Assembly: GCA_026003475.1 (NCBI GenBank)
Contig: BPHJ01000001.1
Location: forward strand, 1,922,098-1,986,097
Length of the DNA stretch: 64,000 nt
From: Candidatus Kapaibacterium sp.
Lineage (GTDB): Bacteria; Bacteroidota; Ignavibacteria; Kapaibacteriales; NICIL-2
Reading direction: 5' to 3'
The position numbers and the translations under genes were made by a program. The notes beneath the pieces were generated by a model that saw only the letters and a program-made list of their open reading frames with translations, searched no databases and was not told the DNA's origin. Shown piece after piece: positions 33,549 through 49,173 of the stretch. Within the stretch, counting starts at the first letter, position 1. The number at the start of each line of letters is the position of its first letter.

Positions 33549-33705
33549 GCGGGAAAGGGAAGTCGTCGCTGCCGCAATCACACCACGCACCCCGGGTACG
33601 CAGAGCACCCCCAGCTTTCAAGAGCGCGTCGGTCGTGCATATTTTGGCAGCAGTTAGTGTATGCGTTCCGCTATGATCCCATCGCAACATCCGAAAACAC
33701 CAGCA

Positions 33706-33843
33706 ATGCCACAACGCAGAAGCTTGGCAGCACGCTCTGCCGCCACGCTCGGCTTCGAATCCAAGCTCTGGGCAGTGGCCGACGCGCTGCATCGCAGGTT
33801 CGTCACATCCATCAGCCACCGGACACAAGGGGAAGTGCAATGA
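33706..33843 (+). pseudogene. 5' remnant of type I restriction-modification hsdM
   Basis: ATLGFESKLWAVADALH matches the HsdM N-terminal LGFExKLWxAADxLR pattern, then similarity stops. Confidence 0.7.
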
Positions 33844-36770
33844 ATCCTGGCTCAATCGTTCGCTGCCGCAATCGTGAATGGGTCCTTTTGCCCTCCGAGA
33901 CAGATGATGTTTGGGTGCTTCGGCCCCTTGCCGGGACGACCGAAGACATCGTCAAGGTGCACCGGGGCTTGGCGAATCTCGTCGGCTACGACCTCCCGTT
34001 CGAGCGCGTCACGTCGGCTTCGTTTCCGCTGCCCACACCCGACGACGTCGCCGATGCCGCCAGTGCGCATCTGCTCTGGCAAGCCGCGCGCCTGACGCTG
34101 CGCGAGGGCGCCACCCCGTTCCGCTCGCTCGGCCGCATCTCGATTCGCCCGCGCACCTATCAGTTTGTGCCGCTGCTCATGGCGCTCAGGCTCGACCCGG
34201 TGCGCCTTTTCATCGCGGATGATGTGGGCGTGGGCAAGACGATCGAGGCACTGCTCATCGCCCGGGAACTGCTCGATCGCGGCGAGATCCGACGCTTCTG
34301 CGTCCTCTGCCCGCCGTACTTGTGCGAGCAGTGGGCCAAGGAGCTGGCCGAGAAGTTCAACCTGGAGCCGGTAGTCATTCGCTCCGGCACCGTGAGCCAA
34401 CTGGAGCGTCAGGTGCCGCCCGGCAAAAGCATCTACGAGCACTTCCCGATCCAGGTCGCCAGCATTGACTTCGTCAAAACTGACCGCAACCGTCACCAGT
34501 TTCTCCAGTTCTGCCCTGAACTCGTGATCGTGGACGAGGCACACGGCGCGGCGGCCGCGCAAGGACGCGCTCAACAGGAACGCCACGCGCTCTTGCGCGA
34601 GGTGGCAAAACGGCCGGAACGGCACTTGATTCTGCTGACCGCCACACCGCACTCGGGCATCGAAGAGGCGTTCCGCTCGCTGCTCGGCTTGCTGCGGCCC
34701 GAGTTCGAGAACTGGAATATCGCGGATCTCGACGAAGAGCAGCGCAGCGAACTTGCCCGCCACTTCGTCCAGCGCACGCGGCGGGACATCGAGCACGGCT
34801 GGGAAGCGGGCAGCGTCTTTCCGCAGCGCGAATCACTTGACGTGACGTACGACCTCTCGGACCACTACCGTCAGCTCTTCGAGCACACCTACGCGTTCTG
34901 CTCCGAGATCGTGCGCACCGGCGAACGGCTCGAAGAACGCAAGCGGCGCGTGCGTTACTGGGGAGCGTTGGCCCTTTTGCGCTGCGTGATGTCGAGCCCT
35001 GCGGCGGCCATCGCAGCGCTCGCCAACCGGCAGGGCACAGTCGCGTTCGAGGACGAAGACGAACCCGAGTTTCGCCCCTTCGTGTTCGAGTTGGCGGACG
35101 AGCGCACCGACGATGAATCCCCCACGCCGCCGGTGGAAGCCGCCGAGGCCACCCTCGCCGAGACCGAGCGCCGTCGGCTGCGCGATCTCGCACAGCTCGC
35201 CACTGAGCTTTGTGGGCCGACGCACGACACCAAACTCGCCCGCGCCATAGAACTCGTGCAACAACTCCTCGAGGAAGGCTTCCACCCGATCCTCTGGTGC
35301 CGCTATGTGGCTACGGCTGAATACCTCGCTGAGCATTTGCGCACAGCACTACCTGCCGATGCCCAGGTGGTCTGCGTGACCGGCCGCCTCGGCGACGACG
35401 AGCGCCAAGCCAAGATCGAGGAGATCGACCCCGACCGCCCCCGCGTGCTCGTGGCAACCGACTGCCTCTCGGAAGGGGTCAATCTGCAGGAGAAATTCAC
35501 GGCGGTCGTGCACTACGACCTCCCCTGGAACCCGAACCGGCTCGAGCAGCGCGAAGGGCGCGTGGACCGCTACGGGCAGCCCGCCAAGCGGGTCAAGGCG
35601 GTGCGGTTCTTCGGGCGGGACAACCCCGTCGACGGCGTGGTCATCGAGGTGCTTCTCGACAAGGCGCGGGAGATCCACCGCACGCTGGGTACGCATGTGC
35701 CCGTTCCCGAAGAAAGCGAAAGCGTCACCCAGGCTGTGCTCGAGGCGCTTTTCCTGCGCGGCGGGCGGCGGGCGGCCACCCAGCAGCTCGTGCTCGACCT
35801 TGGTGTTCCGCAGGTGACCGAACTCCACCGCCGTTGGGAGCGCGATGCCGAACGCGAGCGCATCAACCGCACCCGCTTTGCCCAGCGGACGCTCAAGCCC
35901 GAAGAAGTCCAGCGTGAACTCGAAGCCACCGACGCCGTGCTCGGGGATCCGGGTGCGGTGCGCGAATTTGTGCTCACAGCAGCCCAGCGCGTGGGCTTGT
36001 CCATCACGATAGATCGCCGTCCCGGCGTCTATCGCGTGGCCGTATCGCCTGAGGCACTGGCGACTGTACCCGAACCGATCCGCCTTGCCCTCTCTCACCA
36101 TTCGCTATTCGCTATTCGCCATTCGCCCTCCCACTGGCTCATCAGCTTCGACTCGCCCACGCCCGAAGGCGCCGAGTACCTCGGCCGCAATCACCGCGTT
36201 GTGGCCGCGCTCGCGCGTATCCTCTTCGAGGAGGCGCTGCGGGGAGCGAGTAGCGAGTGGCGAGCGGCGAGTAGTGACAAGAGAGTCAGCCGGTGTGGCG
36301 TTATCCGCACACGTGCAGTGGCAACTCTCACAACGATCCTTTTGCTTCGCGTGCGTTACCTGATTGAGCAACCGCAGACAAGGCCGCTGCTTTCCGAAGA
36401 GGTACTCGTGGTGGGGTATCGCGATCGTGGGAAGAACCAGGTGGAGTGGCTCGAGGATAGCATGGCGCTGCAGCTGCTCGCTGAGGCAAAGCCTGATGCC
36501 AACATTCCGATGACGGAGAAGCGGGAGTTGGTGGAGCGAGCGCTCCGCGCACTAAGTGAATGGCGAATCGCGAATGGCGAATGGGGTAAAGAACATCCGA
36601 TCCAGCGAGCGATCCGGGATCGGGTGGCCCAACGCGCCAGCGAGTTGGCCGATGCTCACAAGCGCATTCGTCAAGCCGTGTCGCTGCGCGTGCGAGGGCT
36701 CGAGGTCAAGCCGCAGTTCCCGCCAGATCTTATAGGAATTCTCGTGTTGCAACCCATGGTGCAGCCATGA
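33840..36770 (+). CDS. SNF2-family helicase (DISARM DrmD-like)
   Basis: IADDVGVGKT, DEAH, LTATPHSG, YDLPWNPNRLEQREGRVDRYGQ. Confidence 0.9.
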   Translation: MNPGSIVRCRNREWVLLPSETDDVWVLRPLAGTTEDIVKVHRGLANLVGYDLPFERVTSASFPLPTPDDVADAASAHLLWQAARLTLREGATPFRSLGRISIRPRTYQFVPLLMALRLDPVRLFIADDVGVGKTIEALLIARELLDRGEIRRFCVLCPPYLCEQWAKELAEKFNLEPVVIRSGTVSQLERQVPPGKSIYEHFPIQVASIDFVKTDRNRHQFLQFCPELVIVDEAHGAAAAQGRAQQERHALLREVAKRPERHLILLTATPHSGIEEAFRSLLGLLRPEFENWNIADLDEEQRSELARHFVQRTRRDIEHGWEAGSVFPQRESLDVTYDLSDHYRQLFEHTYAFCSEIVRTGERLEERKRRVRYWGALALLRCVMSSPAAAIAALANRQGTVAFEDEDEPEFRPFVFELADERTDDESPTPPVEAAEATLAETERRRLRDLAQLATELCGPTHDTKLARAIELVQQLLEEGFHPILWCRYVATAEYLAEHLRTALPADAQVVCVTGRLGDDERQAKIEEIDPDRPRVLVATDCLSEGVNLQEKFTAVVHYDLPWNPNRLEQREGRVDRYGQPAKRVKAVRFFGRDNPVDGVVIEVLLDKAREIHRTLGTHVPVPEESESVTQAVLEALFLRGGRRAATQQLVLDLGVPQVTELHRRWERDAERERINRTRFAQRTLKPEEVQRELEATDAVLGDPGAVREFVLTAAQRVGLSITIDRRPGVYRVAVSPEALATVPEPIRLALSHHSLFAIRHSPSHWLISFDSPTPEGAEYLGRNHRVVAALARILFEEALRGASSEWRAASSDKRVSRCGVIRTRAVATLTTILLLRVRYLIEQPQTRPLLSEEVLVVGYRDRGKNQVEWLEDSMALQLLAEAKPDANIPMTEKRELVERALRALSEWRIANGEWGKEHPIQRAIRDRVAQRASELADAHKRIRQAVSLRVRGLEVKPQFPPDLIGILVLQPMVQP
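36099..36126. repeat. Heptamer array, 4 x [C/T]ATTCGC
   Basis: Read directly; translates HSLFAIRHSP. Confidence 0.95.
36246..36273. repeat. Heptamer array, 4 x GCGAG[T/C][A/G]
   Basis: Read directly; translates ASSEWRAAS. Confidence 0.85.
36556..36583. repeat. Heptamer array, 4 x G[C/T]GAAT[G/C]
   Basis: Read directly; translates SEWRIANGEW. Confidence 0.9.
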
Positions 36771-39700
36771 GCCTGTTTCCCGGAATCCGTATCGAAGGCG
36801 GCCTGCTCGGGCCGGACACCCTGGACCAGATTCTCACCGGCGAGCTTCCCGGGCAGAGGCTGTCCGACTTTGGCCTCGATGGGCGACGAACGCTCACTGA
36901 CGAAATCGCCAGCGCCTTTGCCGATGCGCGCGCCCAGTGGGAGGTGCTCAAGCGCCGGCTGGAGCGTCTGCCGGAGTCAGACGTGGCCACCTCGGTCACG
37001 CGCGATACGTGGGTGGTCCCGTTCCTGAGCCTCTTAGGCTACGAGCTCCGCTACAACCCGCGCGCCTACGAGCTGGACGGCGCGACCTTCGCCATCTCCC
37101 ACCGAGCGGGGGAGGCTGAAGACGCCCCGCCGGTTCACATCGTCGGTGCCCGGCAAGAGCTGGGGCGCGTTGCCCCTACCGGTCGCCCGAGGCTGGCCCC
37201 GCACTCCCTGGTCCAGGAGTTCTTGAACCGCAGCGAGCACCTCTGGGGCATCGCCACCAACGGGCTCACCCTGCGCCTGCTACGCGACTCGACCTACGTC
37301 CGCCGCCAAGCTTACGTGGAGTTCGACCTCCAGCAGATTTTCGAGGAGCAGCGCTTCAACGACTTTGCCGTTCTCTACCGCCTCCTGCACCGCAGCCGCC
37401 TGCCCCGCTCGGCCGCGGAGGCGCGGGATTGCTTGCTCGAGCAGTACCACCAGCACGCCGTCGAGCAGGGCGGGCGGGTACGCGATCGCCTCCGCGACGG
37501 CGTCGAGGAGTGCATCAAGCGCCTGGCCAACGGCTTTCTGGCACACCCGGACAATGGCGAGCTGAGAGCGCGAATAGCGAATAGCGAATGGCGAATAGAA
37601 GGTCAGACTGAAGCACCATTCGCTATTCGCCATTCGCCATTCGCTCAAGACTTCTACCGGCAGCTCCTGCGCCTGGTCTATCGCTTCTTGTTCCTCCTCG
37701 TTTCCGAAGATCGCGGGCTCATCAGCGCCGAGCCGCTCTACCGCGAGCACTATGGCGTGGCCCGGCTGCGACGCCTCTGCGAACGACGAAGCAACTACAC
37801 CGAGCACGACGACCTCTGGTGCAGCCTGAGAGTGCTGTGGAAGGTGCTCTCCGACGAGCGACTGGCCGGCCTCCTGGGGGCTGCGCCCTTGAACGGAGAA
37901 CTCTTTGCGCCTCTTGCACTGGACCACTGCACCATCACCAACCGCGACTTCCTCGAGGCATTCTGGCACCTGGCGTACTACCGCGAAACGCCTTCTGCGC
38001 CGCCCCGCCGAGTCAACTACGCCGCCCTGGATGTCGAAGAACTCGGCTCGGTCTATGAGAGCCTGCTAGATTACCACCCAGTGATCGAAGCGAATGGCGA
38101 ATGGCGAATAGCGAATGGCCTCAGGTTCGATTTGGTGTTCGGTTCGGAGCGCAAGAGCACGGGTTCGTACTACACGCCGCCGGAACTGGTCACCGAACTC
38201 ATCCGCTCAGCGCTGGAGCCGGTGATCGAAGAGCGACTGGCGGAAGCTAAGCGAATGGCGAATAGCGAATGGCGAATGGTGTCAAAAAACATCCGAGAGA
38301 AGTTCATCCATGAAGTCTTTCCAAGATTATCGCGACCTGGAGGTCTGGCAAAAGGCGATGCAGGTGGTCAAAAAGGTTTACCTGCTGACCAAGGACTTTC
38401 CCCCGTCGGAACTGTACGGCCTGACCAGCCAGATGCGACGAGCAGCCATCTCGATCCCGGCGAACATCGCCGAGGGCTGGGGACGCCGTTACACAGCGGA
38501 GTTCATCCAGTTTCTGCGTCAAGCGAACGGGAGCCGGACAGAGCTGGAGACACTTCTTCTCCTGAGCATGGAAGTCGGGCTGTGCCCTCAGGAGGAAGTA
38601 GCGTGTCCGATTCTGGAAGACCTTCAGCTCATCGGGAGGCAACTGAACAACTTGGAACGCAGCCTCCAACGGAGAAAGAACTCACCATAGCCTGGGAATC
38701 CACTCCATTCGCTATTCGCTATTCGCTATTCGCCCAGCACGCTCTGTTGAGCGTGCGTGTCCTCGATCCCGCCTGCGGCTCCGGCCACTTCCTGCTCGCT
38801 GCCGCCCGCCGGTTGGGGAAAGAGCTTGCACGCATCCGCACCGGCGAAGACGAACCCGCCCCGGAGCGGGTGCGCGAAGCGATCCGTGACGTTGTGGCGC
38901 ACTGCATCTACGGCGTGGACAAGAACCCGCTCGCCGTCGAGCTCTGCAAAGTCGCTCTGTGGCTTGAAGCCCACTGCTCGGGCAAGCCGCTGACGTTCCT
39001 CGACCACCGCATCCGCTGCGGCGATTCCCTCGTGGGGGTCTTCGACCTCGGCGTGCTTGAACGCGGCATCCCCGACGAGGCATTCACTCCCGCCGGCACC
39101 GACGCGAAAGAGACTGCGGGCCTCCTCAAAAAGCGCAACCGCACCGAGCGTCGCGATCTCGAGAGCGGGCAACTGCGCCTGCCGCTTGTGCCTGCGCACG
39201 TCGTGGACGCTTTGGGCAGGAAGCACCACGACATCGAAGCGATCGCCGACGACTCCCCCGCCGCCGTGCGCGAGAAAAAGAGTCGCTACGACCGCCTGCT
39301 GGCCGATCCTGAGCGGCTCCGCGTCGCCGAAGCCTGCGACCTCTGGACCGCCGCGTTCTTCCAGCGCTTTACGCCCGGGCTGGCCACATCGCCAGCCGCG
39401 ATCACCACGGACGGTGTGACCGATCGCCTCGCTGACCGAGCGCATCCCCAGGCGCTCGCCGCCGCACGGGCGCTTGCTGAGCACCACCGCTTCTTCCACT
39501 GGCCACTGGAGTTCCCCGAAGTTTTTCAGCGAATAGCGAATAGGGGGGAAAAAGAGCGAATAGCGAATAGCGAAGTGGCGAATAGCGGAGAAAGAGAGCG
39601 AATAGCGAATAGCGAAGTGGCGAATGGTGAAACCGATGACCCATTCGCTATTCGCCATTCGCCATTCGCCGAACCGCGCCATTCGCCATTCGCCGCTCCT

Positions 39701-41182
39701 ATTCGCCATTCCCCATTCGCCAACTCCGGCTTCGATGTGGTGCTCGGCAATCCCCCCTTCATGGGCGGGCTCAAAATCAGCGGTGCCCTTGGGGACAAGT
39801 ACCGCCACTGGCTGGAGGTGGCTTATGAGCCCTACGGCGGCACGGCGGACCTGTGCGCCGCTTTCTACCGCCGCGCCTACAGCCTGCTCAAGCCCGGCGG
39901 GCGCCTGGGCATGGTCGCCACCAACACCATCGGCCAGGGCGACACCCGCGAGAGCGGGCTCGCCGTGATCCTCCAAGAGGATGGCACCATCACCTTTGCC
40001 CGCCGCTTCATCAAGTGGCCCGGCGCCGCCAATGTGGAAGTGAATCTCGTCGCCCTCCACAAACCCCACCATTCGCCACTCGCCACTCACCATTCGCCAT
40101 TCGCCATTCGCCATTCGCCGATCCTCGATGGCCAACCTGTGGACTTCATCTCCTCCCGCCTCGATGCCGACCCCGAAGCTGAACCCAAACGCCTCCCGCA
40201 AAACGAAGGCAAGGCGTTCCAGGGCGACATCGTGCGCGGTATGGGCTTTGTGCTGGAGCCGGAGGAGGCGGAAGCGCTGCTGGCCAAAGACCCGCGCAAC
40301 GCCGACTGCCTTTTCCCCTATCTGAACGGCGAGGACCTGAACAGCCACCCGGAGCAAAAGCCCAGCCGCTACGTGATTTGCTTCCACGACTGGGACCTGA
40401 AGCGCGCATGTCAATACCCCGACCTGCTGCGCATTGTGGAAGAGAGGGTAAAGCCTGAGCGAGAGCGGCTCCGGGGACCGGGCGACAAGCGCAACCGCGA
40501 ATACTGGTGGCAGTTCGGCGCTTACCGCGCTGGCATGCGCCGCGCCATCATCCCCCTCAAGCGGGTGCTGGTGCGAAGCCGCGTGAGTGAGTTGCATGCG
40601 ATCGCATTTGTCCCAAAAGGGTACGTTTACGGCGATGCAACGGTCGCCTTCGCCTTCGACGACGACTACCACTTCGCCCTGCTGCAATCCAGCGTGCATG
40701 AGGTGTGGGTATGGCGGCAAGCATCCAGCCTTGAGTCGCGAAATCGCTATACGCCCACGGACTGTTTTGACACCTTTCCGTTTCCGCCGGGGGAGTATGA
40801 GCGAATAGCGAATAGCGAATGGCGAATAGCGAATAGCGAATGGCGAGTGGAGGAGATGCCGGAGGCGTTTCAGCGGGCGGCGCGGGTGGGAGCAGGGTAC
40901 CACGAGCACCGGCGGCAAATCATGCTTTCCCGCCAACTCGGGCTCACGAAAATCTACAACCTCTTTCACGACCCGGCCTGCCAGGATGCGGACATCCAGC
41001 GCCTGCGCGAGCTGCACGCCGAGATGGACCGCGCCATCCTGGCTTGCTACGGCTGGGAAGATGTAGATTTGCGTTATGATTTCTACCCCAACGATCGCGG
41101 GCAGATGCGCTACACCGTTGCGCCCGAGGCGCGGCGGGAGCTTCTGCGGCGGTTGATAGAGCTGAATTTGAGGCTTGCGTGA
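36767..41182 (+). CDS. Eco57I/MmeI-type N6-adenine methyltransferase (DrmMI-like/type IIG) with in-frame repeat inserts
   Basis: ERKSTGSYYTP, motif I VLDPACGSGHFL, motif IV FDVVLGNPPF, MmeI-like specificity region (YWWQF, RYTPTDCFDTFPFP). Confidence 0.92.
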   Translation: MSLFPGIRIEGGLLGPDTLDQILTGELPGQRLSDFGLDGRRTLTDEIASAFADARAQWEVLKRRLERLPESDVATSVTRDTWVVPFLSLLGYELRYNPRAYELDGATFAISHRAGEAEDAPPVHIVGARQELGRVAPTGRPRLAPHSLVQEFLNRSEHLWGIATNGLTLRLLRDSTYVRRQAYVEFDLQQIFEEQRFNDFAVLYRLLHRSRLPRSAAEARDCLLEQYHQHAVEQGGRVRDRLRDGVEECIKRLANGFLAHPDNGELRARIANSEWRIEGQTEAPFAIRHSPFAQDFYRQLLRLVYRFLFLLVSEDRGLISAEPLYREHYGVARLRRLCERRSNYTEHDDLWCSLRVLWKVLSDERLAGLLGAAPLNGELFAPLALDHCTITNRDFLEAFWHLAYYRETPSAPPRRVNYAALDVEELGSVYESLLDYHPVIEANGEWRIANGLRFDLVFGSERKSTGSYYTPPELVTELIRSALEPVIEERLAEAKRMANSEWRMVSKNIREKFIHEVFPRLSRPGGLAKGDAGGQKGLPADQGLSPVGTVRPDQPDATSSHLDPGEHRRGLGTPLHSGVHPVSASSEREPDRAGDTSSPEHGSRAVPSGGSSVSDSGRPSAHREATEQLGTQPPTEKELTIAWESTPFAIRYSLFAQHALLSVRVLDPACGSGHFLLAAARRLGKELARIRTGEDEPAPERVREAIRDVVAHCIYGVDKNPLAVELCKVALWLEAHCSGKPLTFLDHRIRCGDSLVGVFDLGVLERGIPDEAFTPAGTDAKETAGLLKKRNRTERRDLESGQLRLPLVPAHVVDALGRKHHDIEAIADDSPAAVREKKSRYDRLLADPERLRVAEACDLWTAAFFQRFTPGLATSPAAITTDGVTDRLADRAHPQALAAARALAEHHRFFHWPLEFPEVFQRIANRGEKERIANSEVANSGERERIANSEVANGETDDPFAIRHSPFAEPRHSPFAAPIRHSPFANSGFDVVLGNPPFMGGLKISGALGDKYRHWLEVAYEPYGGTADLCAAFYRRAYSLLKPGGRLGMVATNTIGQGDTRESGLAVILQEDGTITFARRFIKWPGAANVEVNLVALHKPHHSPLATHHSPFAIRHSPILDGQPVDFISSRLDADPEAEPKRLPQNEGKAFQGDIVRGMGFVLEPEEAEALLAKDPRNADCLFPYLNGEDLNSHPEQKPSRYVICFHDWDLKRACQYPDLLRIVEERVKPERERLRGPGDKRNREYWWQFGAYRAGMRRAIIPLKRVLVRSRVSELHAIAFVPKGYVYGDATVAFAFDDDYHFALLQSSVHEVWVWRQASSLESRNRYTPTDCFDTFPFPPGEYERIANSEWRIANSEWRVEEMPEAFQRAARVGAGYHEHRRQIMLSRQLGLTKIYNLFHDPACQDADIQRLRELHAEMDRAILACYGWEDVDLRYDFYPNDRGQMRYTVAPEARRELLRRLIELNLRLA
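37570..37644. repeat. 75-bp hairpin insert: 4 x GCGAAT[A/G], 19-nt spacer, 4 x [C/T]ATTCGC
   Basis: Read directly; in frame in the MTase. Confidence 0.95.
38090..38117. repeat. Solo heptamer array, 4 x GCGAAT[A/G]
   Basis: Read directly. Confidence 0.95.
38251..38733 (+). mobile_element. 483-bp intervening-sequence-like element: inverted heptamer arrays (38251-38278, 38706-38733) flanking a four-helix-bundle gene
   Basis: Four forward and four inverse units bound the nested gene; removal restores an MTase-like EERLAEANQHALLSVRVLDPACGSG; mobility is inferred. Confidence 0.7.
38310..38690 (+). CDS. Four helix bundle protein (23S rRNA IVS protein/TIGR02436 family, Avd-like), nested in the +1 frame of the MTase
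   Basis: YRDLEVWQKAM...FPPSELYGLTSQMRRAAISIPANIAEGWGR...FIQFLRQANGSRTELET family signature. Confidence 0.93.
   Translation: MKSFQDYRDLEVWQKAMQVVKKVYLLTKDFPPSELYGLTSQMRRAAISIPANIAEGWGRRYTAEFIQFLRQANGSRTELETLLLLSMEVGLCPQEEVACPILEDLQLIGRQLNNLERSLQRRKNSP
39529..39720. repeat. 192-bp compound hairpin insert of inverted heptamer arrays just before motif IV
   Basis: Forward GCGAATA blocks then inverse CATTCGC blocks; removal gives EFPEVFHNSGFDVVLGNPPF. Confidence 0.93.
40070..40118. repeat. Heptamer array, 7 x CA[T/C]TC[G/A]C
   Basis: Read directly. Confidence 0.95.
40801..40849. repeat. Heptamer array, 7 x GCGA[A/G]T[A/G]
   Basis: Read directly. Confidence 0.95.
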
Positions 41183-42171
41183 TGAAGGCCCGTAGTCGAG
41201 AGTTACTGGACCGTGCTATCGCGGCGATGGTCGCGGCCATCGAAATCTATAACAAGCCCGATTTCTCCTACCGGGCGGAATCGTTCGCGATCCTGGCGAC
41301 GAATGCCTGGGAATTGCTCCTGAAGGCCAAATGGCTCGCAGAGCACAACAACCGCATCTCCTGCCTGTACGTCCGTCAGGGAGGCGGCACGAAACGGAAG
41401 CGGATCAAGAAGACGGCGGCCGGGAACCCGATGACCCACAGCCTCGATTATCTGGCGAGCAAGCTTCGCGAGCAGGGAGCGCTGAACGAGCAGGCGTACC
41501 GTAACCTGAGGATTCTGAGCGAGTTCCGCGATTCGGCGGTGCATTTCTATCACCAGAATCCGCAGTTCGCGGAGCGACTGCAGGAAATCGGTGCGGCGGC
41601 AGTCAAGAACTTCAGCTCTGCGGCTCGGGAATGGTTCAAGGCCGAGCTCTCGCGGTACAACTTCTACCTCCTGCCCCTCGCCTTCGTATCGCCACTACAG
41701 TCAGCGGAGGGAGTCATACTCAGCGGTGAGGAGAAGCGGTTTCTGAAGTTCGTGAACGGGCTGAGTCAGGATGATCACGACCCCGCTTCGCCATATTCGG
41801 TTGCCGTGAATGTGGAGGTGCGGTTCGTTAAATCAAAGTCAGCCACCGCCGCCCCGGTAAGGATCACCACCGACCCAACGGCGCCCGCGGTCCGCCTGAC
41901 GGAGGAGCAGATAAGAGAAAAATACCCATGGGACTACGCGGAGCTAACGAAAAAGTGTCAGAAGCGCTATTCGAACTTCAAGGTTGACCGAGATTATCAT
42001 CGGTTGAGAAAGTCGCTGGAGTCGGACTTGCGATATGCGCACGTTCGCTTGCTCGATCCAGCGAAGCCGAACAGTCAGAAGAAGCTCTTTTTCAACCCCA
42101 ACATCCTGCAAGAATTCGACAAGCACTATGCCCCTAAAACAGACGGTGGCCGGGCGCAGACGCCTAATTAG
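41179..42171 (+). CDS. DUF3644-like protein (possible HEPN-like RxxxxH)
   Basis: AIEIYNKPDFSYRAESFAILATNAWELLLKA; RDSAVH. Confidence 0.75.
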   Translation: MMKARSRELLDRAIAAMVAAIEIYNKPDFSYRAESFAILATNAWELLLKAKWLAEHNNRISCLYVRQGGGTKRKRIKKTAAGNPMTHSLDYLASKLREQGALNEQAYRNLRILSEFRDSAVHFYHQNPQFAERLQEIGAAAVKNFSSAAREWFKAELSRYNFYLLPLAFVSPLQSAEGVILSGEEKRFLKFVNGLSQDDHDPASPYSVAVNVEVRFVKSKSATAAPVRITTDPTAPAVRLTEEQIREKYPWDYAELTKKCQKRYSNFKVDRDYHRLRKSLESDLRYAHVRLLDPAKPNSQKKLFFNPNILQEFDKHYAPKTDGGRAQTPN

Positions 42172-42232
42172 GCGACAGGGCGCGAGTGAGCATGAACGTG
42201 CTCAATTTCCATCCGTTGGTTTTTGACGTCTC

Positions 42233-42364
42233 CGCGACGCCGTGGCCTACATCCTGGACCAATTCCCCATCGTCCGGCGCAAGGATGAGGAGCGCTATGG
42301 CACGTATCGCACGAAGGAGATGATCCTGCAGCTCTACGATGCGATGCAGCATAGGCGGAGCTGA
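42233..42364 (+). pseudogene. Orphan 3' end of an Eco57I-type MTase, copy 1
   Basis: [43 protein letters not shown]. Confidence 0.8.
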
Positions 42365-42366
42365 GA

Positions 42367-42401
42367 AACTCCCCGCTCACCACTCACCACTCGCCGCTCG
42401 C
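42367..42401. repeat. Degenerate intergenic heptamer array (5 units, starts AACTCCC)
   Basis: AACTCCC CGCTCAC CACTCAC CACTCGC CGCTCGC. Confidence 0.85.
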
Positions 42402-42492
42402 CATTTTTGCCAGGCGGATGTCCTTCGGAAAAGAACGTTATTTTCGCCATGTGACCTTTACAGAAGGACACACGATTGCTAACCTGTCCGCC

Positions 42493-43815
42493 ATGGCATT
42501 GCACCCGATTCTGCAAGAAAAACTTGTCGCTGGCTTCGAGCCGGTCAGGCTCGAAGAGCTGACCCGAAGGGACGCACGGCTGCCTGCCATCAAGAACAAG
42601 GTCCATACAGTGCTCGGCATGCGGCGGGTCGGCAAAACCACCTTCTTGCGCCAGGTGCAGCAGGAACAGCAGCAGGCGCTTGCCCCAGAACGGGCGGTGT
42701 ACGTAAGCTTCGATGACGATCGTCTGGCGGACCTGCCGCTTTCGCAGCTCGATGCGCTCGTGGAGGAGTACTACCGCACGTTTCCCCATCTCCGTGGTCG
42801 CGAGCTCGTGTGGTGGTTTTTCGATGAGATACAGGTGGTTGCAGGCTGGGAGCGGTTCGTCCGGCGATTGATGGACACGGAAAAGGTGGCGGTGGTCGTT
42901 TCCGGTTCCTCAGCTCGTCTTCTCTCCCGCGAGGTCCATACTTCCTTGCGGGGCCGCGGATTTGAAACGGTTCTACGCCCCTTTAGCTTCCGCGAATTCC
43001 TTCGTCACCGGAACGAAGAGCCGACCAAACCCCTCGCGCGCCTGAGTGCGGCCGAGCGCTCGCTCATCGAGAAGCGCGTGCTCGAATATCTGCAGGTGGG
43101 TGGGTTCCCCGAGGCTCAGGGGTTGGATCTGCGCCTGCGCATTCAACTGCTGCAGAGTTATGTGGACACGCTGCTTCTGCGCGATGTGGTCGAGCGCTAC
43201 CAGGTGAGCCAGATCGCTGCGCTTCGCTCGATTACTCGGACTTGTCTGCGCAACCCGGCCGCGCTCCAGAGTGCGCACGCTCTCTACCGCGACCTCAAAT
43301 CCCAGGGGTATGCTGTTTCCAAAGACACGGTACACGCCCTTCTCGGATACCTGGTGGATGCCTTTTTGCTGACGCTTGTGCCGCTGGCGACGGACTCTGA
43401 ACGGCAGCGTAATGCCAATCCGCGCAAAATCTATCCTGCTGACCCAGGGCTGATTCATGCGTTCGATACGAGCGGTCGCGCTAATCTGGGGCGTGCCTTG
43501 GAAACAGCGGTGCTAAACGCCTTGGTCTCACAAGGGGCGGAGGTGGGCTATGTGAAGACTGATGAAGGATTCGAGGTAGATTTTCTCGCGCGCATCCCCG
43601 GCAAGAGGGAACTACTCATCCAGGTATGTGCGGACCCGACCCAGCCAGAGGTTCTCGAACGCGAAGTGCGTGCACTCGACGCAGCAGCTCGCACCCATCC
43701 TCGCGCCGAGCGGATTCTGATTGTGCTGACGCGAGACCAAGCAATTCAGGTGTCGCCCGGCACCATTCGGGTGTGTGCAGCATACGAATGGTTTCTGGAG
43801 GAAGATCTGTTCTAG
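42493..43815 (+). CDS. AAA_14 ATPase with DUF4143 C-terminal domain
   Basis: GMRRVGKT, FFDEIQ, SGSSA, GGFPE, KIYPADPG, EVDF. Confidence 0.9.
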   Translation: MALHPILQEKLVAGFEPVRLEELTRRDARLPAIKNKVHTVLGMRRVGKTTFLRQVQQEQQQALAPERAVYVSFDDDRLADLPLSQLDALVEEYYRTFPHLRGRELVWWFFDEIQVVAGWERFVRRLMDTEKVAVVVSGSSARLLSREVHTSLRGRGFETVLRPFSFREFLRHRNEEPTKPLARLSAAERSLIEKRVLEYLQVGGFPEAQGLDLRLRIQLLQSYVDTLLLRDVVERYQVSQIAALRSITRTCLRNPAALQSAHALYRDLKSQGYAVSKDTVHALLGYLVDAFLLTLVPLATDSERQRNANPRKIYPADPGLIHAFDTSGRANLGRALETAVLNALVSQGAEVGYVKTDEGFEVDFLARIPGKRELLIQVCADPTQPEVLEREVRALDAAARTHPRAERILIVLTRDQAIQVSPGTIRVCAAYEWFLEEDLF

Positions 43816-43908
43816 CCTTCGCTACCCTGTGACGTTGTTCGGTCGTAGTTCTTCATTGCCGATGAGCGGGCTCGGGTGCTCGTGGATCGCATGCCGCTGG
43901 AGTGGCCG

Positions 43909-44040
43909 CGCGATGCAGTGGCGTACATCCTGGACCAATTCCCCATCGTCTGCCGCAGGGACGAGGAGCGGTATGGCACCTACCGCACCAAGGAGACAAT
44001 CCATGCGCTCTACGATGCGATGCAGCATAGACGGAGCTGA
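43909..44040 (+). pseudogene. Orphan 3' end of an Eco57I-type MTase, copy 2
   Basis: [43 protein letters not shown]; 114/132 nt identical to copy 1. Confidence 0.8.
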
Positions 44041-44042
44041 GA

Positions 44043-44105
44043 AACTCCCCATTCGCCATTCGCCACTCGCCATTCGCTACTCGCCACTCCCCACTCGCCA
44101 CTCGC
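44043..44105. repeat. Intergenic heptamer array (9 units, starts AACTCCC)
   Basis: Read directly. Confidence 0.95.
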
Positions 44106-44118
44106 TAATTTTGCCCCA

Positions 44119-47100
44119 ATGCCAAGCATTCTCGACTTTCACGACAGCGTCCTCGGCGAGTACAGCGATTTTGTCCGCTCGTTTCTGCACATTGCCGACG
44201 AGCGCGTGCGGGAGTTTGTCGATCATGAGCTGCAGCACGGGCGGCATCTTTGGCCGGAGCCGATGGTGCAGATCAGTCCAGCCTACGCACGTGCGGCAGA
44301 TGTTGATCAGCTCGCCCAGCGCGGGGTACTCCATCCCGACACACAAGCGACGTTCCGGACTTCGAGTGGAGAACCGTTTGTGCTCTACCAGCACCAGGTC
44401 GAGGCATTCGAGCGAGTTTCGCAGCGCAGGAGCATCGTGGTCACGACTGGGACGGGTTCGGGGAAGAGTTTGTGCTACTTTTTGCCGATCCTCGACGAGA
44501 TCATGCGCAATCCAGTGCGGGACAAAACAGTAGCGCTGCTGGTGTACCCGATGAACGCGCTGGTCAATTCGCAGGTGGAGGCGCTCCAGCGTTGGAAGCG
44601 CGTCTTCGAGGAGTACACCGGGCGGACGTTTCCGGTGACGTTTGCCAAGTACACGGGAGAAACGACCGAGCAAGAGCGGAACGCGATGCGGGAGCAGCCG
44701 CCGCACCTCATCTTGACCAACTACATGATGGTGGAGCTGATGCTCGTGCGGCCGGAGGATCGGCGATTCCTCGATGCAGCAGGCGGTGGTTTGCGCTATG
44801 TGGTCTTCGACGAACTGCATACCTACCGCGGACGGCAAGGAGCAGACGTAGCGATGCTCATCCGACGGTTGAAGGCGCGTGCGGCAACGCCCGACGTTGT
44901 GCACATAGGCACTAGTGCGACGATGGTCTCGCAGCCGGGGGCGAGTGCTGCCGAGCGTCGGCAGGTCGTTGCGGAGTTCGCACGGCGTTTCTTCGGGCAT
45001 CCGTTTACGCCGGATGACGTCATCGAGGAAACGCTCCAGCTGCCATCGAACAGCAGAACGCCAGCGCCGGAGGAACTCCGCACTGCGATTGAGGCTGGAA
45101 GCCAGGAAGGGATGGAGACCTTGCTCGGATGGGTTGAGCAGTACTTAGGGGTCGTGGTCGCCGGTGATGGTCGGATCGAACGTCGGCCGCCGACGACGAT
45201 CGCCGAGGCTGCCGCTGCGCTTGCGCAGCTGACGGGCCAGTCCCTCGAACGCTGCGCCGATGCACTCAGCAAGACACTGGCCTGGGCGAGCAGCACGCGG
45301 CGTGTCGCGCTCAAGCTCCACCAGTTCATTGCCCAGAGTGGCGCAGTTCACGCAACGCTCGAAGCCGCCGATCGCCGCATGCTCACGCTCGACGAACAGA
45401 TACGCACAGCGGACAATCGGCTGTTGGCACCGCTCAAGTTCTGTCGCGTCTGCGGGCAGGAGTACTACTGCGTCGTCCTTGCGGATCGGTCCGTGCTCCC
45501 GCGGCATGACGGCCAGCAGGATTTGCCGCCTGAGGGGATGCCTGGCTACGCGATGCTCGCCGGCAATCCGCCCGTGGAGGATCCAGAGTTGCCCGAGGAG
45601 TGGCTCGATGCGCGAGGTTCGGTGAAGAAAGATTATCGCGACGCCGTGCCGCGCCTGCTCTGGGTTCGCCCCGACGGTCGCCTTGCCGAGAGCGGCAGCG
45701 ATCCGGAAGCAACGGCGATGTGGTTTCAGCCGGAGCCGTTTCTGCTCTGCATGCGCTGCGGCGAGTACTACAGTCGCCGCGAGAGCGAATTCCGCAAGCT
45801 TGTTTCGCTCTCGAGCGAGGCGCGGTCGAGTGCGACGACGGTCTTGGCAGTCTCAGTGTTGCGCCACGCAGCGCGCACGGGGGCAGTGCGCCAGAAGCTG
45901 CTGACGTTCACCGACAATCGCCAGGATGCATCGCTCCAGGCGGGGCACTTCAACGATTTCGTCCACGTGGCAGTTCTCCGCTCGGCGCTCATCAGTGCGC
46001 TTGAAGGGGCAGGCCCTGATGGGCTGACCCATGATGAAGTGGCAATGAAGACCGTCCGTGCTCTGCGAGGATCTGCGCAGGGGCTCCGGCTCTCCGACAT
46101 CGCCCAGAACGCGCAGCTTGACGAGAATTCACCGGCGGCAGAGCGCGTCTGGGAGACGTTCACGGAGTTGACCGAATATCGGCTTATCCAGGATTTGCGG
46201 CGTGGCTGGCGGATCGTGCAGCCGAATTTGGAAGACGTCGGGCTGCTGCGCATCGAGTACGACGGATTAGATCGGCTCTGCGCTCGCGACGAGATTTGGC
46301 AGGGGACGGTCCTTGCCGGAACTTCTGTGGAGGAGCGGCAGGCAATCCTCTGGCCGCTGCTGGAGTACTTGCGCACGCAGCTTGCGATCGCGGTGCGTGT
46401 TCTCGAACCGGACTACCAGCGGCAGCTTCGCCGCCGCGCTGAGCAATTGCTCGGTGAATTCTGGGGACTTGATCCCGACAGCGATGAGTTGCATCCGGCT
46501 AAGTACGCAGTGCTCCCGGGGACATCGGAACGCCAGCGGCCGAGCGGCATCAGTCTCAGTGAGCGGAGCAAGGTTTGGCGTTTCCTGCGCCGACGGCTCG
46601 GATTGGACAGTGCACAGCATCGGCCCGCACTGCAGGGACTGCTCGATGTGCTCACGCAACAGGGCTACCTCCGAAAGCTCGATCCGATCGGTGATCACCA
46701 ACGGTACCAGCTCGATGTAACGTGCATCCGGTGGGTACGCGGTGACGGTACGCCGCCACCACTGGATCCGCTCGGTGGCCGTCACACCACTACGCGTACA
46801 GAGGCGATGCGGCCGATCAACGAGTTTTTCCGGCGCTTTTACTGCGAATCTGCTGCTGAACTTGCTACGTTCGAAGCGCGAGAGCACACTGCTCAGGTTG
46901 TCGCCAGTGGTGAGCGCCAGCGGCGTGAACGTCGGTTCCGCTGGGAAGACAGCGACTCCACCAAGGAACGCGAGCTTGGGCGGCGACTGCCCTACTTGGT
47001 CTGCTCGCCGACGATGGAATTGGGCATAGACATTGCTGATCTCGACGTGGTACATCTGCGGAATGTGCCACCATCACCAGCTAACTACGCGCAGCGGAGC

Positions 47101-49173
47101 GGGCGCGCTGGGCGCAACGGGCAAGCAGGGGTAATCTACACGTACTGCGGTGCACGCAATCCGCACGACCGATACTTTTTCCGCAATCGCGCGCAGATGG
47201 TCGCCGGGAGCGTCCGTGCGCCGATGCTGGATTTGGCAAACGAGAATTTGTTGCGTGTGCACCTCCACGCTCTCTGGCTGGCGCGGGTAAACGTGCCGCT
47301 GGGGAATTCGATCGAGAACGTCCTCGACCTTGAGCGTGCGGACTTGCCGTTGCGGGAGGACGTCCGTTTAGCGATGGAGCTCTCCGAACGTGATCGCCGG
47401 TCGCTGCGGGAGGAAATGCACCGCGTGCTCAGCAGCGACCGCGACGACCTCGAGAGTGTGCCGTGGTTTGGGGACGATTGGATCGATCGCATCCTCAAGG
47501 AAGCGCCGGCCACCTTCGATCGCGCATTCGATCGGTGGCGGGAGCTGTACCGCGCTGCTAACGAGCAACTCAGACGCGCTCGCATTGAGGAGGACCGCTC
47601 CCGCAACGACCGCGAGGGGCAGCAGCGTGCCAAACGCCGGCAGGACGAAGCGCGCCGCCAACTCAATCTACTGCTGCAAGTCAACGTCGCGCGGGAGGAA
47701 GGCGAGTTCTACCCCTATCGCTACCTTGCCAGCGAAGGCTTCTTGCCCGGGTACAACTTCCCGGCGCTACCGGTGCGTGCCTGGATCCCGCGTGGCGACG
47801 GTGAGTTCATCGCTCGTCCGCGCGCTGTGGCGTTGCGTGAACTGGCGCCAGGGAATTTTCTCTACCACGAAGGCGCCAAGTGGGAAGTGGTCGGCTTTCA
47901 ACTTCCGCCCGGTGGGTTAGCCGAGCGGAAATTCACCGTGCGGCTCTGCCACCGATGCGGCGGATTTTCGCCATTCGATGCCGACCTCTGCGTGGTGTGT
48001 ACTGAGCGGTTGACGTTGGAGCAGAGCGAGATGGTGTCGCTGTTGGATATGCCGAACGTCCGCACACGTCGCCGCGAGCGCATTACCTCGAACGAAGAAG
48101 ATCGGCAGCGCTCGGGCTACAGCATCGAGACGTACTTCCAATTCAGCGTACTTCCAGGCAGCACGGAGGAAGCCACCGTCGAGCACGATGGCACCGCACT
48201 ATTCCACCTGACGTATGCCCCGGCAGCACGACTGTTGCGGATCAACCATGGCTGGCGCGCCGCAAGTAGCAAAGGATTCCGCATTGACCTCGACACCGGT
48301 GAGATCACCACAACCGATGCCTACGTGGATTCTCCCGCTGAGGATCGGCGCACAGTGGAGACGCTCCGCCTTGCGGTGCAGGATACGCAGAACATCCTCC
48401 TGGTACGCCCTGCCGATCCGGAACTCTTTTCGGACCGTGCCCTGGAAGTAAGCTTTCGCGCAGCACTGCTGCGTGGGCTGCAGCAAGCCTTCCAAGTGGA
48501 TGAAAGTGAACTCGCAGCCGAATGTATCGGGTGCAAGGAGCGTCGAGCGATTCTGCTCTACGAGAACAGCGAAGGTGGTTGCGGTGTGCTTCGGCGGTTA
48601 GTTGGTCAAGCCGATGCACTCGCGCTCGTTGCAAAAGAAGCACTCGCAGCGGCGCACTTCGATGAATCCGGCAACGATTGCATGCCGTCGTGCACGACGG
48701 CATGCTATGAGTGCCTGCTCAGCTACTCGAACCAACTCGATGCTCTCGTGCTCGATCGGCATCGGGTGCGGGAGTTGTTGGTCCGGCTTGCGCGTTCTTC
48801 GACGCTACGGGAATCAGCAGGTGGGCGCTCCTACCAGGAACAGTTCGCATGGCTGGCATCGCAGCTTGACCGGCGGTCGGAGTTAGAGCGGCGGTTCCTT
48901 CGGGAGCTTGCCAACGGTCGGTACCGCTTGCCGGACGATGCGCAGCGAAGCATTGCTCAGCCGCGCTGTGTAGCGGACTTTTTCTACGAACCGAATGTTC
49001 TGATTTTTTGCGACGGCACACCACACGACGAACCCCGACAGCACCAGCGGGATAACTTGCTGCGGGACCAGCTCATTGCATCAGGCTACCGTGTCATCAC
49101 GATCCGCTGGGATCAGTCGATCAGCGATCAAATTCGGCACTACCCCGACGTCTTCGGTCACAGAGCACAGTAA
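44119..49173 (+). CDS. DEAD/DEAH helicase with DUF1998 Zn domain and C-terminal DUF559/Vsr-like nuclease (DrmA-DrmB fusion-like)
   Basis: TGTGSGKS, DELH, YAQRSGRAGR, CTTACYECLLSYSNQ, ADFFY...FCDGTPH. Confidence 0.9.
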   Translation: MPSILDFHDSVLGEYSDFVRSFLHIADERVREFVDHELQHGRHLWPEPMVQISPAYARAADVDQLAQRGVLHPDTQATFRTSSGEPFVLYQHQVEAFERVSQRRSIVVTTGTGSGKSLCYFLPILDEIMRNPVRDKTVALLVYPMNALVNSQVEALQRWKRVFEEYTGRTFPVTFAKYTGETTEQERNAMREQPPHLILTNYMMVELMLVRPEDRRFLDAAGGGLRYVVFDELHTYRGRQGADVAMLIRRLKARAATPDVVHIGTSATMVSQPGASAAERRQVVAEFARRFFGHPFTPDDVIEETLQLPSNSRTPAPEELRTAIEAGSQEGMETLLGWVEQYLGVVVAGDGRIERRPPTTIAEAAAALAQLTGQSLERCADALSKTLAWASSTRRVALKLHQFIAQSGAVHATLEAADRRMLTLDEQIRTADNRLLAPLKFCRVCGQEYYCVVLADRSVLPRHDGQQDLPPEGMPGYAMLAGNPPVEDPELPEEWLDARGSVKKDYRDAVPRLLWVRPDGRLAESGSDPEATAMWFQPEPFLLCMRCGEYYSRRESEFRKLVSLSSEARSSATTVLAVSVLRHAARTGAVRQKLLTFTDNRQDASLQAGHFNDFVHVAVLRSALISALEGAGPDGLTHDEVAMKTVRALRGSAQGLRLSDIAQNAQLDENSPAAERVWETFTELTEYRLIQDLRRGWRIVQPNLEDVGLLRIEYDGLDRLCARDEIWQGTVLAGTSVEERQAILWPLLEYLRTQLAIAVRVLEPDYQRQLRRRAEQLLGEFWGLDPDSDELHPAKYAVLPGTSERQRPSGISLSERSKVWRFLRRRLGLDSAQHRPALQGLLDVLTQQGYLRKLDPIGDHQRYQLDVTCIRWVRGDGTPPPLDPLGGRHTTTRTEAMRPINEFFRRFYCESAAELATFEAREHTAQVVASGERQRRERRFRWEDSDSTKERELGRRLPYLVCSPTMELGIDIADLDVVHLRNVPPSPANYAQRSGRAGRNGQAGVIYTYCGARNPHDRYFFRNRAQMVAGSVRAPMLDLANENLLRVHLHALWLARVNVPLGNSIENVLDLERADLPLREDVRLAMELSERDRRSLREEMHRVLSSDRDDLESVPWFGDDWIDRILKEAPATFDRAFDRWRELYRAANEQLRRARIEEDRSRNDREGQQRAKRRQDEARRQLNLLLQVNVAREEGEFYPYRYLASEGFLPGYNFPALPVRAWIPRGDGEFIARPRAVALRELAPGNFLYHEGAKWEVVGFQLPPGGLAERKFTVRLCHRCGGFSPFDADLCVVCTERLTLEQSEMVSLLDMPNVRTRRRERITSNEEDRQRSGYSIETYFQFSVLPGSTEEATVEHDGTALFHLTYAPAARLLRINHGWRAASSKGFRIDLDTGEITTTDAYVDSPAEDRRTVETLRLAVQDTQNILLVRPADPELFSDRALEVSFRAALLRGLQQAFQVDESELAAECIGCKERRAILLYENSEGGCGVLRRLVGQADALALVAKEALAAAHFDESGNDCMPSCTTACYECLLSYSNQLDALVLDRHRVRELLVRLARSSTLRESAGGRSYQEQFAWLASQLDRRSELERRFLRELANGRYRLPDDAQRSIAQPRCVADFFYEPNVLIFCDGTPHDEPRQHQRDNLLRDQLIASGYRVITIRWDQSISDQIRHYPDVFGHRAQ

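Follow-up and report, generated by a model that had tools for sequence, protein, structure and literature searches.

An intervening-sequence-like gene cassette nested in a second reading frame of a DrmMI-family DNA methyltransferase gene

The cassette and its host gene

The window analysed here is a stretch of 64,000 nucleotides (nt) from the genome of a Candidatus Kapaibacterium species (C1:1922098-1986097; the genome is one contig of 2.16 Mb with 56% GC). Its subject is a cassette in which a complete gene of the 23S rRNA intervening sequence (IVS) protein family, hereafter the intervening-sequence protein (IVP), lies between inverted arrays of heptamers and within the coding frame of a DNA methyltransferase. 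The host open reading frame (ORF) matches the PADLOC model for DrmMI (PDLC02643) with E 2.8e-225, and the DrmMI component of DISARM class 1 is therefore present; Pfam matches to Eco57I, MmeI_Mtase, MmeI_TRD and N6_Mtase are found in the same ORF. GC content at the locus is 0.62-0.66, versus 0.56 for the genome. The host gene, the cassette and the nearest conserved host motifs are arranged as follows.

36767..41182, + strand: host gene, DrmMI-family N6-adenine DNA methyltransferase, 1471 aa, unbroken frame (PADLOC, Pfam)
38165..38191, + strand: motif X (SYYTPPELV), the final conserved host element 5′ of the cassette, aligning to residues 24-45 of CamA (7LNI/8CXZ)
38251..38279, + strand: left arm, 4 x GCGAAT[G/A], host-frame reading (K)RMANSEWRM (Tandem Repeats Finder: GCGAATG x4.1)
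38280..38309, + strand: spacer from left arm to IVP start, with a purine-rich stretch resembling a Shine-Dalgarno (SD) site
38310..38690, + strand: nested IVP gene (23S rRNA-IVS protein / four-helix-bundle protein), 126 aa, +1 frame of the host
38705..38733, + strand: right arm, 4 x [C/T]ATTCGC, host-frame reading PFAIRYSLFA (Tandem Repeats Finder: ATTCGCT x3.9 at 38707-38733)
38765..38785, + strand: motif I (DPACGSG), the S-adenosylmethionine-binding loop and first conserved host element 3′ of the cassette

The nested ORF matches PF05635 with E 5e-36 over model positions 1-105 of 106 (123.5 bits against a cut-off of 33.8), and it also exceeds the cut-offs of TIGR02436 (116.3 bits, cut-off 24) and NF008911 (137.7 bits, cut-off 137). 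A preliminary description of this DNA, made from the letters, had placed a 126-aa ORF at 38310-38690 in the +1 frame of the methyltransferase and assigned it to the four-helix-bundle family TIGR02436/23S_rRNA_IVP; both ORFs were found at these coordinates, and the profile scores bear the family assignment out. PF05635 is the sole Pfam match of the nested ORF and has one copy in this genome, the host-frame reading of the insert corresponds to no domain, and Pfam detected no splicing or nuclease domain of the intein or homing-endonuclease kind in either frame of the insert. PADLOC contains no model matching the IVP. By sequence similarity, its closest solved relative is the pentameric XCC0516 (PDB 2GSC, five chains; E 1.6e-22). 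We take the IVP and Avd, the accessory protein of diversity-generating retroelements, to be homologous members of one four-helix-bundle fold family.

The arms pair into a 29-bp stem (27 Watson-Crick and 2 G.U pairs), one pair longer than the 28-bp stem that had been proposed for the inverted 4 x GCGAAT[A/G] and [C/T]ATTCGC arrays. An inverted-repeat search delimits slightly longer arms of 37 nt, 86% complementary and separated by 419 nt. When the 506-nt element is folded as RNA, the 29-bp stem closes the minimum-free-energy structure and the centroid structure alike, and the predicted energy of -207.4 kcal/mol compares with -169.5 +/- 6.4 for shuffled sequences (z -5.9; 0/100 shuffles as good). 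The cassette proper (38251-38733) is 483 nt, or 161 codons, and contains no stop in the host frame, as the preliminary description had also noted in placing it just 5′ of motif I (38765). The residues that it contributes to the host frame are 34% P+G+S, versus 17% in the remainder of DrmMI, and the gap from motif X to motif I is 179 residues, versus approximately 10 in the solved methylase CamA.

With respect to expression, 23 of 30 homologous cassettes have a GGAG, GAGG or AGGA resembling an SD site at -18 to -5 relative to the first codon of the IVP. A scan of 36500-41500 detected no sigma-70-like promoter, and Rfam returned nothing relevant in 36000-44500. No reverse transcriptase was seen among the ORFs covered by general scans of 27918-54373, which included no search aimed at reverse transcriptases or at template/variable repeats.

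Filled and empty alleles

The same arrangement recurs in related genomes. DrmMI orthologues in G007, G002 and G020 (58-68% identity) carry an IVP gene at the same place in 3/3 cases. A protein search with residues 430-730 as query recovered 120 DrmMI proteins among the matches listed, and in the 94 of these where both motifs could be located by pattern, motif X and motif I are separated by at least 180 residues in 82 and by 90-139 residues in 12. The sources of the DrmMI matches are labelled as Pirellulaceae, Nitrospiraceae, Fimbriimonadales, Kapaibacterium and Thermogutta metagenome-assembled genomes (MAGs), these being bin labels that are possibly wrong.

At the DNA level, segments were taken from genome contigs and from the best 80 of 173 confirmed metagenome stretches, giving 87 segments of which 73 are unique. 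Thirty-three unique segments are filled and full-length, and two more are filled but cut by contig ends. Empty alleles, whose existence among homologues the preliminary description had anticipated, number 28, and 25 of them are exactly 168 nt long. The rest are a handful of intermediates with internal deletions, all in frame. Segment length is a multiple of three in 72/73 unique segments (the exception is L078), and the copy number of the arrays varies between alleles.

Comparison of the two allele types defines the junctions. Empty alleles read EERL..A[K/R] T..EKE[R/Q] A[I/L]LS, whereas filled alleles read EERL.EAK RMANSEW...SLFAEH ALLS, and in eight filled/empty pairs compared codon by codon the cassette replaces approximately seven codons with the same two boundaries every time. 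Because the empty alleles hold this 7-codon T..EKE[R/Q] linker, the cassette is not a clean insertion at 38251/38733. The clean junction predicted in the preliminary description was consequently not found: removing 38251-38733 on paper yields ...AEANQHALLS, unlike any natural empty allele. The stretch lacking a counterpart in the closest empty allele, L081, was delimited by blastn of that allele against the window.

38240..38775, + strand: stretch without counterpart in L081 (68 nt there)

A 'TEKE' just 5′ of the IVP stop resembles the 'EKE' of the empty linkers, and is either host sequence kept between two insertions or a coincidence. An empty allele is also present in a cultured strain, Chroococcidiopsis thermalis PCC 7203, on plasmid pCHRO.01, which was the sole match in a plasmid search.

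Public metagenome assemblies bear on the integrity of the locus. Contigs of run X1 match the window without a difference over 38090-38278, 38252-38436 and 38465-38668, and the Logan contigs of runs X1-X4 break at the arrays. None of these contigs joins 38250 to 38734, which, for contigs only, is evidence neither for nor against excision; the joints that do occur, such as 38118 to 38704 with 16 other letters between, resemble other array hairpins of the community. A chance ORF or a misassembly was ruled out by the strong family match, by the independent assembly agreeing across the left junction and by the 35 other unique loci that have the cassette at this same position.

Selection on the two reading frames

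The IVP occupies the +1 frame in every filled segment, and a host-frame stop occurs in 0/73 unique segments. Substitution patterns were examined in 30 intact IVP genes over 121 codons. Nucleotide diversity at IVP codon positions 1, 2 and 3 is 0.32, 0.24 and 0.54, the ratio pN/pS is 0.42 in the IVP frame versus 1.54 in the host frame, and amino-acid identity is 60% versus 35%, respectively. The IVP is thus the sequence-constrained gene. Judged by these substitution patterns, purifying selection acts on the IVP in its own frame, and the host-frame reading of the overlap is unconstrained. The preliminary description had weighed its proposal against the possibilities that the segment is normal protein in homologues, or that the nested ORF experiences no purifying selection; the ratios of 1.54 and 0.42, respectively, point the other way. 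An ordinary protein domain was likewise ruled out by the host-frame pN/pS of 1.54 and the 35% identity.

Although its amino-acid sequence drifts, the host frame does not close. A host-frame stop requires a T-ending IVP codon followed by a codon that starts with AA, AG or GA. Among the nested genes, T-ending codons precede such codons at 0/690 sites, versus 383/2094 (18%) elsewhere. When codons were shuffled synonymously within each gene, the host frame was open in 11% of cases on average (median 8.6%), compared with the observed 30/30. Of the other frames, the remaining forward one is open in 0/30 genes and the three reverse ones in 7/30, 0/30 and 0/30. In a control set drawn from the same phylum, comprising 29 free-standing IVP genes, the equivalent frame is open in 2/29 and T-ending codons occupy 298/776 risk sites. 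The host frame stays open even where the IVP is broken, as in L039 (stop after 11 codons) and L049 (stop after 55 codons), or internally deleted, as in L051/52, L053 and L055. By the measure of these codon statistics, the host frame is actively kept open by selection. Both frames are thus open with a signature of selection on each, as dual coding entails, and the open host frame fits ribosomes that translate DrmMI through the cassette; it is not expected under DNA or RNA excision or under ribosome hopping.

Conservation of the arms

The arms carry a constraint of their own. In 23 aligned cassettes, 90.4% of 667 cells in the stem are standard pairs, versus 32-45% when the partners are slid by 1-3 columns. 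Changes on both sides are seen in 7/29 stem pairs, and the observed covariation score was reached by 0/500 shuffles. The changes are concerted, with both arms passing from GCGAAT to GCGAGT to GCGAGC. Diversity at host third positions is 0.22 in the left arm versus 0.67 in the upstream flank, and 0.24 in the right arm versus 0.53 in the downstream flank. As far as alignments can establish it, these values show the arms to be conserved at the nucleotide level, with complementarity kept by compensatory changes.

Mobility relative to the host gene

A tree of the host flanks was built from 58 rows with the cassette removed. Filled and empty alleles are interspersed on it, and its strongly supported branches force at least nine changes of the filled state; the window itself clusters with two filled alleles and one empty allele (97% SH-aLRT). 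The IVP tree separates a clade A, with GCGAAT arms, from a clade B, with GCGAGT or GCGAGC arms, and because arm type and IVP clade change together the cassette can be treated as a unit. On the host tree, clade B requires 7 changes for 7 rows, which is no better than shuffled labels, and constraining the clade-B rows together on the host data was rejected (delta lnL 598, p-AU 6e-90).

The window provides an example. Its nearest host relative, L039, has a clade-B cassette, and the IVP nearest to its own (L014, 97% identical) resides in a more distant host, whose DNA is 84% identical to the window over 37931-39366 and approximately 70% identical upstream. On the evidence of these trees, the presence, absence and type of the cassette are shown to be independent of host-gene phylogeny. 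Since the 7-codon linker is absent from filled alleles, empty alleles are not derivable by simple deletion of the cassette, so that its spread looks like allelic exchange via the conserved flanks or like site-specific insertion.

The same architecture in other hosts

The preliminary description had proposed a search for array-flanked IVP genes inside other ORFs, and one was found in an Anaerolineae MAG. In this locus (L017), an HmaB/DUF1156 methylase (PADLOC E 2e-154) contains an IVP gene (E 7e-41) in the +1 frame with the host frame open, and GGGGATC-type arrays and their inverse flank the nested gene. A second, free-standing IVP gene lies just upstream of the nested one, between HmaA and HmaB. 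The L017 IVP also matches the bAvd-like family PF22296 with E 3e-6, below the model cut-off. Elsewhere, L018 has an intergenic, apparently frameshifted IVP gene between GCGAATA/GCGAGTA arrays, and L105 and L106 have other array types, hexamers included. As a separate observation on L105 (G043:C97:1-1379), a helicase-like ORF with an ATGSGKT motif contains two in-frame GGGGACA-type array hairpins, and just upstream of it lies an array-flanked IVP whose alternative frame is closed.

Searching 1.84 billion representative proteins with a profile derived from 28 host-frame translations gave 593 matches at E <=1e-3, 180 of them at <=1e-10. Among the best 150, 81 are at least 380 aa long. Sixteen of these 81 were taken as DrmMI-like, from their motifs or from the earlier protein listing, and the other 65 were scanned with Pfam, which identified Eco57I (17), MmeI_Mtase (14), N6_Mtase (9), N6_N4_Mtase (5), DUF1156 (2), histidine-kinase domains (5), nSTAND1 (2), a single protein kinase, an EcoP15I-type Mod and others. 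The flanks of the profile matches are 7-residue periodic peptides derived from many different heptamers, and several PglX-like hosts were matched between motif X and motif I. For this wider host range of nested IVPs we rely on proteins alone rather than DNA, and it should be read as an inference. Gene callers annotate filled methylases as single long proteins, with the nested gene missed or mis-framed; the 69 short proteins among the best 150 matches are probably mis-framed calls of nested genes. With respect to free-standing IVP genes, 4/29 have significant flanking inverted arrays, and PF05635 occurs in 114/151 genomes of the phylum with up to 16 copies each.

Interpretation

Taken together, these observations make it probable that the segment is a mobile, IVS-like IVP cassette that is translated with the methyltransferase and tolerated in it as a dual-coded loop, lying between motifs X and I. 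The preliminary description had listed several mechanisms for an IVS-like element in a protein-coding gene; the element itself is supported and, of the mechanisms, only tolerance as a dual-coded loop fits, RNA or DNA excision and translational bypass being disfavoured by the maintained open frame. In the mechanism that we favour, ribosomes on the DrmMI mRNA would read through the cassette and produce an active enzyme with a flexible, P/G/S-rich loop of approximately 160 aa, and a separate round of translation, beginning at the IVP's own start, would yield the IVP from that mRNA. The cassette would spread among DrmMI alleles by flank recombination or a site-specific step during horizontal transfer of defence islands. 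Its stem is likely to be a substrate of RNase III, as in rRNA IVSs and Correia elements, and cleavage there would act by modulating the mRNA, not by rescuing the host gene.

Several points weigh against this reading. Read-through and separate translation of the IVP are both deduced from selection signatures, and the tolerated disordered loop rests on composition and on the alignment to CamA. The SD-like site of the window cassette consists only of GAGAGAAG and is weak. Neither a transposase nor a nuclease nor a target-site duplication was found with the cassette. G.U pairs number 54 in the stem and A.C mismatches 31; with both this common, the stem cannot be placed in RNA in preference to DNA. 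The L017 element folds only slightly better than its shuffled versions (z -1.9). As for the statistics, the loci share descent and come in part from the best 80 of 173 stretches, so that counts are not independent samples; the 121 codons of the substitution analysis are not wholly contiguous and therefore include a few artificial host-frame codons at joins; and the trees are quick searches with SH-aLRT support only. Finally, the free-standing control genes are 28-53% GC and not GC-matched to the nested set, and because they are lower in GC the synonymous shuffles are the better control.

A different beneficiary is proposed if the cassette is a domesticated module, in which the IVP is a working accessory or regulator of methyltransferase defence, acting for example on DrmMI level or activity, and is nested since co-expression helps rather than as a selfish passenger. 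This view, which is compatible with dual coding, we consider possible but doubtful. It is consistent with the purifying selection on the IVP, with the predominance of defence methylases among the 65 scanned hosts, with the free-standing IVP between HmaA and HmaB in L017, and with the flagging of PF05635 as defence-associated and Avd-like in a published paper (PMC10053308). Nonetheless, DrmMI can do without the cassette, as is plain from the 28 unique alleles that lack it, some of them very closely related to filled alleles; the IVP has been lost or broken in several lineages in which the host frame is still open; the cassette type is also present in histidine kinases, intergenic DNA and rRNA; and PADLOC has no model for the IVP.

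Removal of the cassette at the RNA level, with RNase III cutting the stem and the host rescued by split translation of the two halves or by their re-joining, is very unlikely. A 29-bp stem does close the element, the genome encodes RNase III, and this enzyme is described as excising the Coxiella IVS and cleaving Correia terminal inverted repeats in mRNAs (PMC4990558, PMC10969869, as far as these sources are accessible). An open host frame and a length in multiples of three would however be needless under such a scheme, yet both are kept. There is also no conserved start or SD site for a C-terminal half, the codons 3′ of the right arm differ from allele to allele, nothing implies an RNA ligation system, and motif X and motif I would fall on separate polypeptides.

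It is extremely improbable that DNA-level excision or array slippage switches the methyltransferase ON and OFF. Phase-variable methylases with simple repeats are well known, a heptamer is not a multiple of three, so that gain or loss of one unit would shift the frame, and array copy number does differ among alleles. These length differences nevertheless keep the frame in 72/73 unique segments (all but L078), the arrays are short (approximately four units) and imperfect, the empty junction is not producible by deleting the cassette, and no contig joins 38250 to 38734, a weak point as it concerns contigs only. Hopping of the ribosome over the cassette is scarcely credible, for the stable stem with matched ends is its sole support, no conserved pair of take-off and landing codons is seen, and neither the open frame nor the multiple-of-three length that are conserved would be required.

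Relation to known elements

Comparisons with published systems draw on the accessible parts of the sources cited. The nearest parallels to a translated IVP cassette are the IVSs of 23S rRNA that carry an S23p/IVP ORF, known from Coxiella, Leptospira and others. The Coxiella element is 428 nt (versus 483 nt for the window cassette), contains an S23p ORF preceded by three tandem heptamers, and is excised by RNase III (PMC4990558). Shared features are the protein family, ends that pair around the ORF, heptamers near the ORF start, an AG-rich SD-like site, a sporadic and horizontal distribution, and decay of the ORF in some lineages (PMC4990558). The long stem from complementary ends that typifies an IVS is present at 29 bp and kept in 23 aligned cassettes. 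The cassette differs in that its host is a protein-coding gene, and hence not helix 25 or 45 of 23S rRNA, in that its arms are the heptamer arrays themselves, and in that tolerance appears to come from a second open frame instead of RNase III excision.

The cassette also resembles palindromic elements within genes. Rickettsia palindromic elements (RPEs) insert in frame, and the terminal inverted repeats of Correia elements are cleaved by RNase III in mRNAs (PMC10969869). [quoted passage not shown] RPE, MITE and Correia elements are, in this source, approximately 150 bp and without a gene of their own, whereas the cassette has a conserved gene in another frame (PMC10969869). Unlike RPEs and MITEs, which occur in many copies, it is single-copy in its genome and has no target-site duplication.

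The arrays have counterparts as well. Four-unit heptamer arrays, often as inverted pairs, have been described with GGGAATC in Xanthomonas, where 70-75 inverted pairs are reported, and with GGGGA(C/T)T in Nostoc (PMC4692102), and four-unit GGGACCG arrays are known from Geobacter (PMC2700814). Common to these and the present arrays are the heptamer period, the preference for four units, the inverted pairs, and both intergenic and intragenic sites (PMC4692102, PMC2700814). In the accessible text of those reports, supplements excluded, the arrays are read as G-quadruplex or regulatory sites with no link to S23p/IVP (PMC4692102, PMC2700814). Here, unlike in Xanthomonas, Nostoc and Geobacter, they form the ends of a gene cassette or of its cargo-less hairpins. 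The short tandemly repeated repetitive (STRR) sequences of cyanobacteria are heptamer arrays of a comparable kind.

With respect to overlapping genes, same-strand overprinting is known in viruses, and the cassette is similar in giving two proteins from one DNA stretch in different frames under asymmetric constraint. It differs in that the overlap arose by insertion, the older and constrained frame is the inserted gene, and the host frame need only stay open. To our knowledge, same-strand overlaps of approximately 375 nt conserved across phyla are rare in bacteria. A literature search, with subscription journals and supplements outside its scope, turned up no account of an IVP gene lying within a protein-coding one, and the combination of IVS, in-frame palindromic element and overlapping gene pair is apparently undescribed.

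More speculatively, array-flanked IVP cassettes may all belong to one widespread family of gene-carrying palindromic mobile elements that settle wherever a long stem-loop is tolerated, namely in rRNA helices, in intergenic DNA and in surface loops of ORFs (chiefly those of defence methyltransferases), and that persist in the last by forcing a second open frame. Orphan four-heptamer arrays (STRR, GGGAATC, GGGACCG) would then be cargo-less remnants, and the pentameric, Avd-like IVP would recognise the arrays for mobility or stem processing. We regard this wider proposal, taken jointly, as tentative and less likely than not.

The translated, dual-coded cassette is of interest in several respects. 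Through it, the IVP family and short tandem heptamer arrays become parts of a single testable element, and we know of no assigned function for either over decades. It would extend the concept of the rRNA intervening sequence to protein-coding genes as a 'third habitat' in which the element is made harmless by different means. With dozens of alleles, natural empty controls and a simple codon signature (no NNT before AAN/AGN/GAN), it offers a clean system for the study of frame sharing. DrmMI, HmaB, PglX-like and type IIG methylases are all hit in or near the connector from motif X to motif I, which marks a permissive site for engineering. The cassette also raises the question of whether it tunes defence expression.

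Other arrays and neighbouring genes

Tandem dimers of the form GCGAAT.GCGAAT or ATTCGC.ATTCGC number 36 genome-wide (19 forward, 17 reverse), and all fall within positions 36100-44051 of the window; the heptamer arrays belong to this locus rather than to the genome generally. The remaining arrays and the flanking helicase genes are listed below.

33657..36770, + strand: upstream SNF2 helicase, with arrays at 36098-36126 and 36558-36584 (PADLOC)
37570..37644, + strand: cargo-less hairpin, 4 + 4 heptamer units with a 17-24 nt loop, in frame in DrmMI
38090..38119, + strand: lone in-frame GCGAATG x4.3 array, with complements in the arms at 37616-37645 and 38705-38733
39528..39722, + strand: in-frame heptamer arrays forming a large inverted pair, flanked by FHWPLEFPEVF and the NPPF motif
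40069..40119, + strand: CCATTCG x7.3 array, in frame in DrmMI
40800..40846, + strand: AGCGAAT x6.7 array, in frame in DrmMI
44119..49173, + strand: downstream DEAD helicase with MZB (DUF1998-type) domain, arrays just 5′ at 44044-44105

The hairpin at 37570-37644 is present in G007, of the same genus, and missing at that site in G002 and G020. Positions 37616-37645 and 38089-38118 are 100% complementary. Such complementarity links many of the arrays at the locus, and several long stems could therefore arise as alternatives in the operon mRNA. In the upstream helicase gene, the inverted arrays (36098-36124 / 36558-36584) are 27 nt long, 93% complementary and separated by 433 nt, and what lies between them is the helicase's own conserved sequence, with no cargo gene. 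In run X1, summed contig depth is approximately 4078 at the left array (38228-38268) and approximately 155 inside the IVP gene; from this excess, GCGAATG arrays are far commoner in that hot-spring metagenome than this genome alone accounts for. At the site of the window's 39528-39722 array, the DrmMI orthologue of L003 (G007:C1:237265-242904, locus on the minus strand) contains a DUF559/Vsr-like domain (PF04480 and PF18741 on P0038), which is read in the host frame and has SPTGRGAGGEG-type repeats on both sides. The methylase resumes in another frame 3′ of this domain, and the gene there looks frameshifted.

Among the neighbouring genes, the upstream SNF2 helicase scores better as DpdE (1e-185) than as DrmD (2e-90), the downstream DEAD helicase scores better as DruE (1e-95) than as a weak DrmA-like match (6e-15), though it has the MZB domain (DUF1998 being the domain of DrmB in DISARM class 1), and no PLD protein (DrmC of DISARM class 1) is found among the ORFs scanned at the locus. 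For these reasons the locus is called DISARM-like and not DISARM. Two genes between the methylase and the downstream helicase, a DUF3644 gene at 41179-42171 (PADLOC PDC-S19, E 8.5e-130) and an AAA_14/DUF4143 gene at 42418-43815 (PADLOC PDC-S01, E 1.8e-92), look like inserted defence-island passengers. Further downstream, at 51002-54373, a second SNF2 helicase with a NOV_C domain has HmaA as its top PADLOC match (E 1.3e-181), which suggests an adjoining Hma-type system; Hma is the system whose methylase carries the nested IVP in L017.

One protein, P0001, is 100% identical to the window's methyltransferase over residues 430-730 and comes from a 9.6-kb contig assigned to a Pirellulaceae MAG, whereas the genome of the window groups with Kapaibacterium-labelled genomes. 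This conflict reflects either a binning error or a very recent transfer of the locus between phyla. Far upstream, at 19625-20183, the window contains a tandem repeat of 69- or 138-nt units (7.6 or 4.1 copies, 68-72% matches), whose printed consensus unit resembles acidic D/G-rich repeats.

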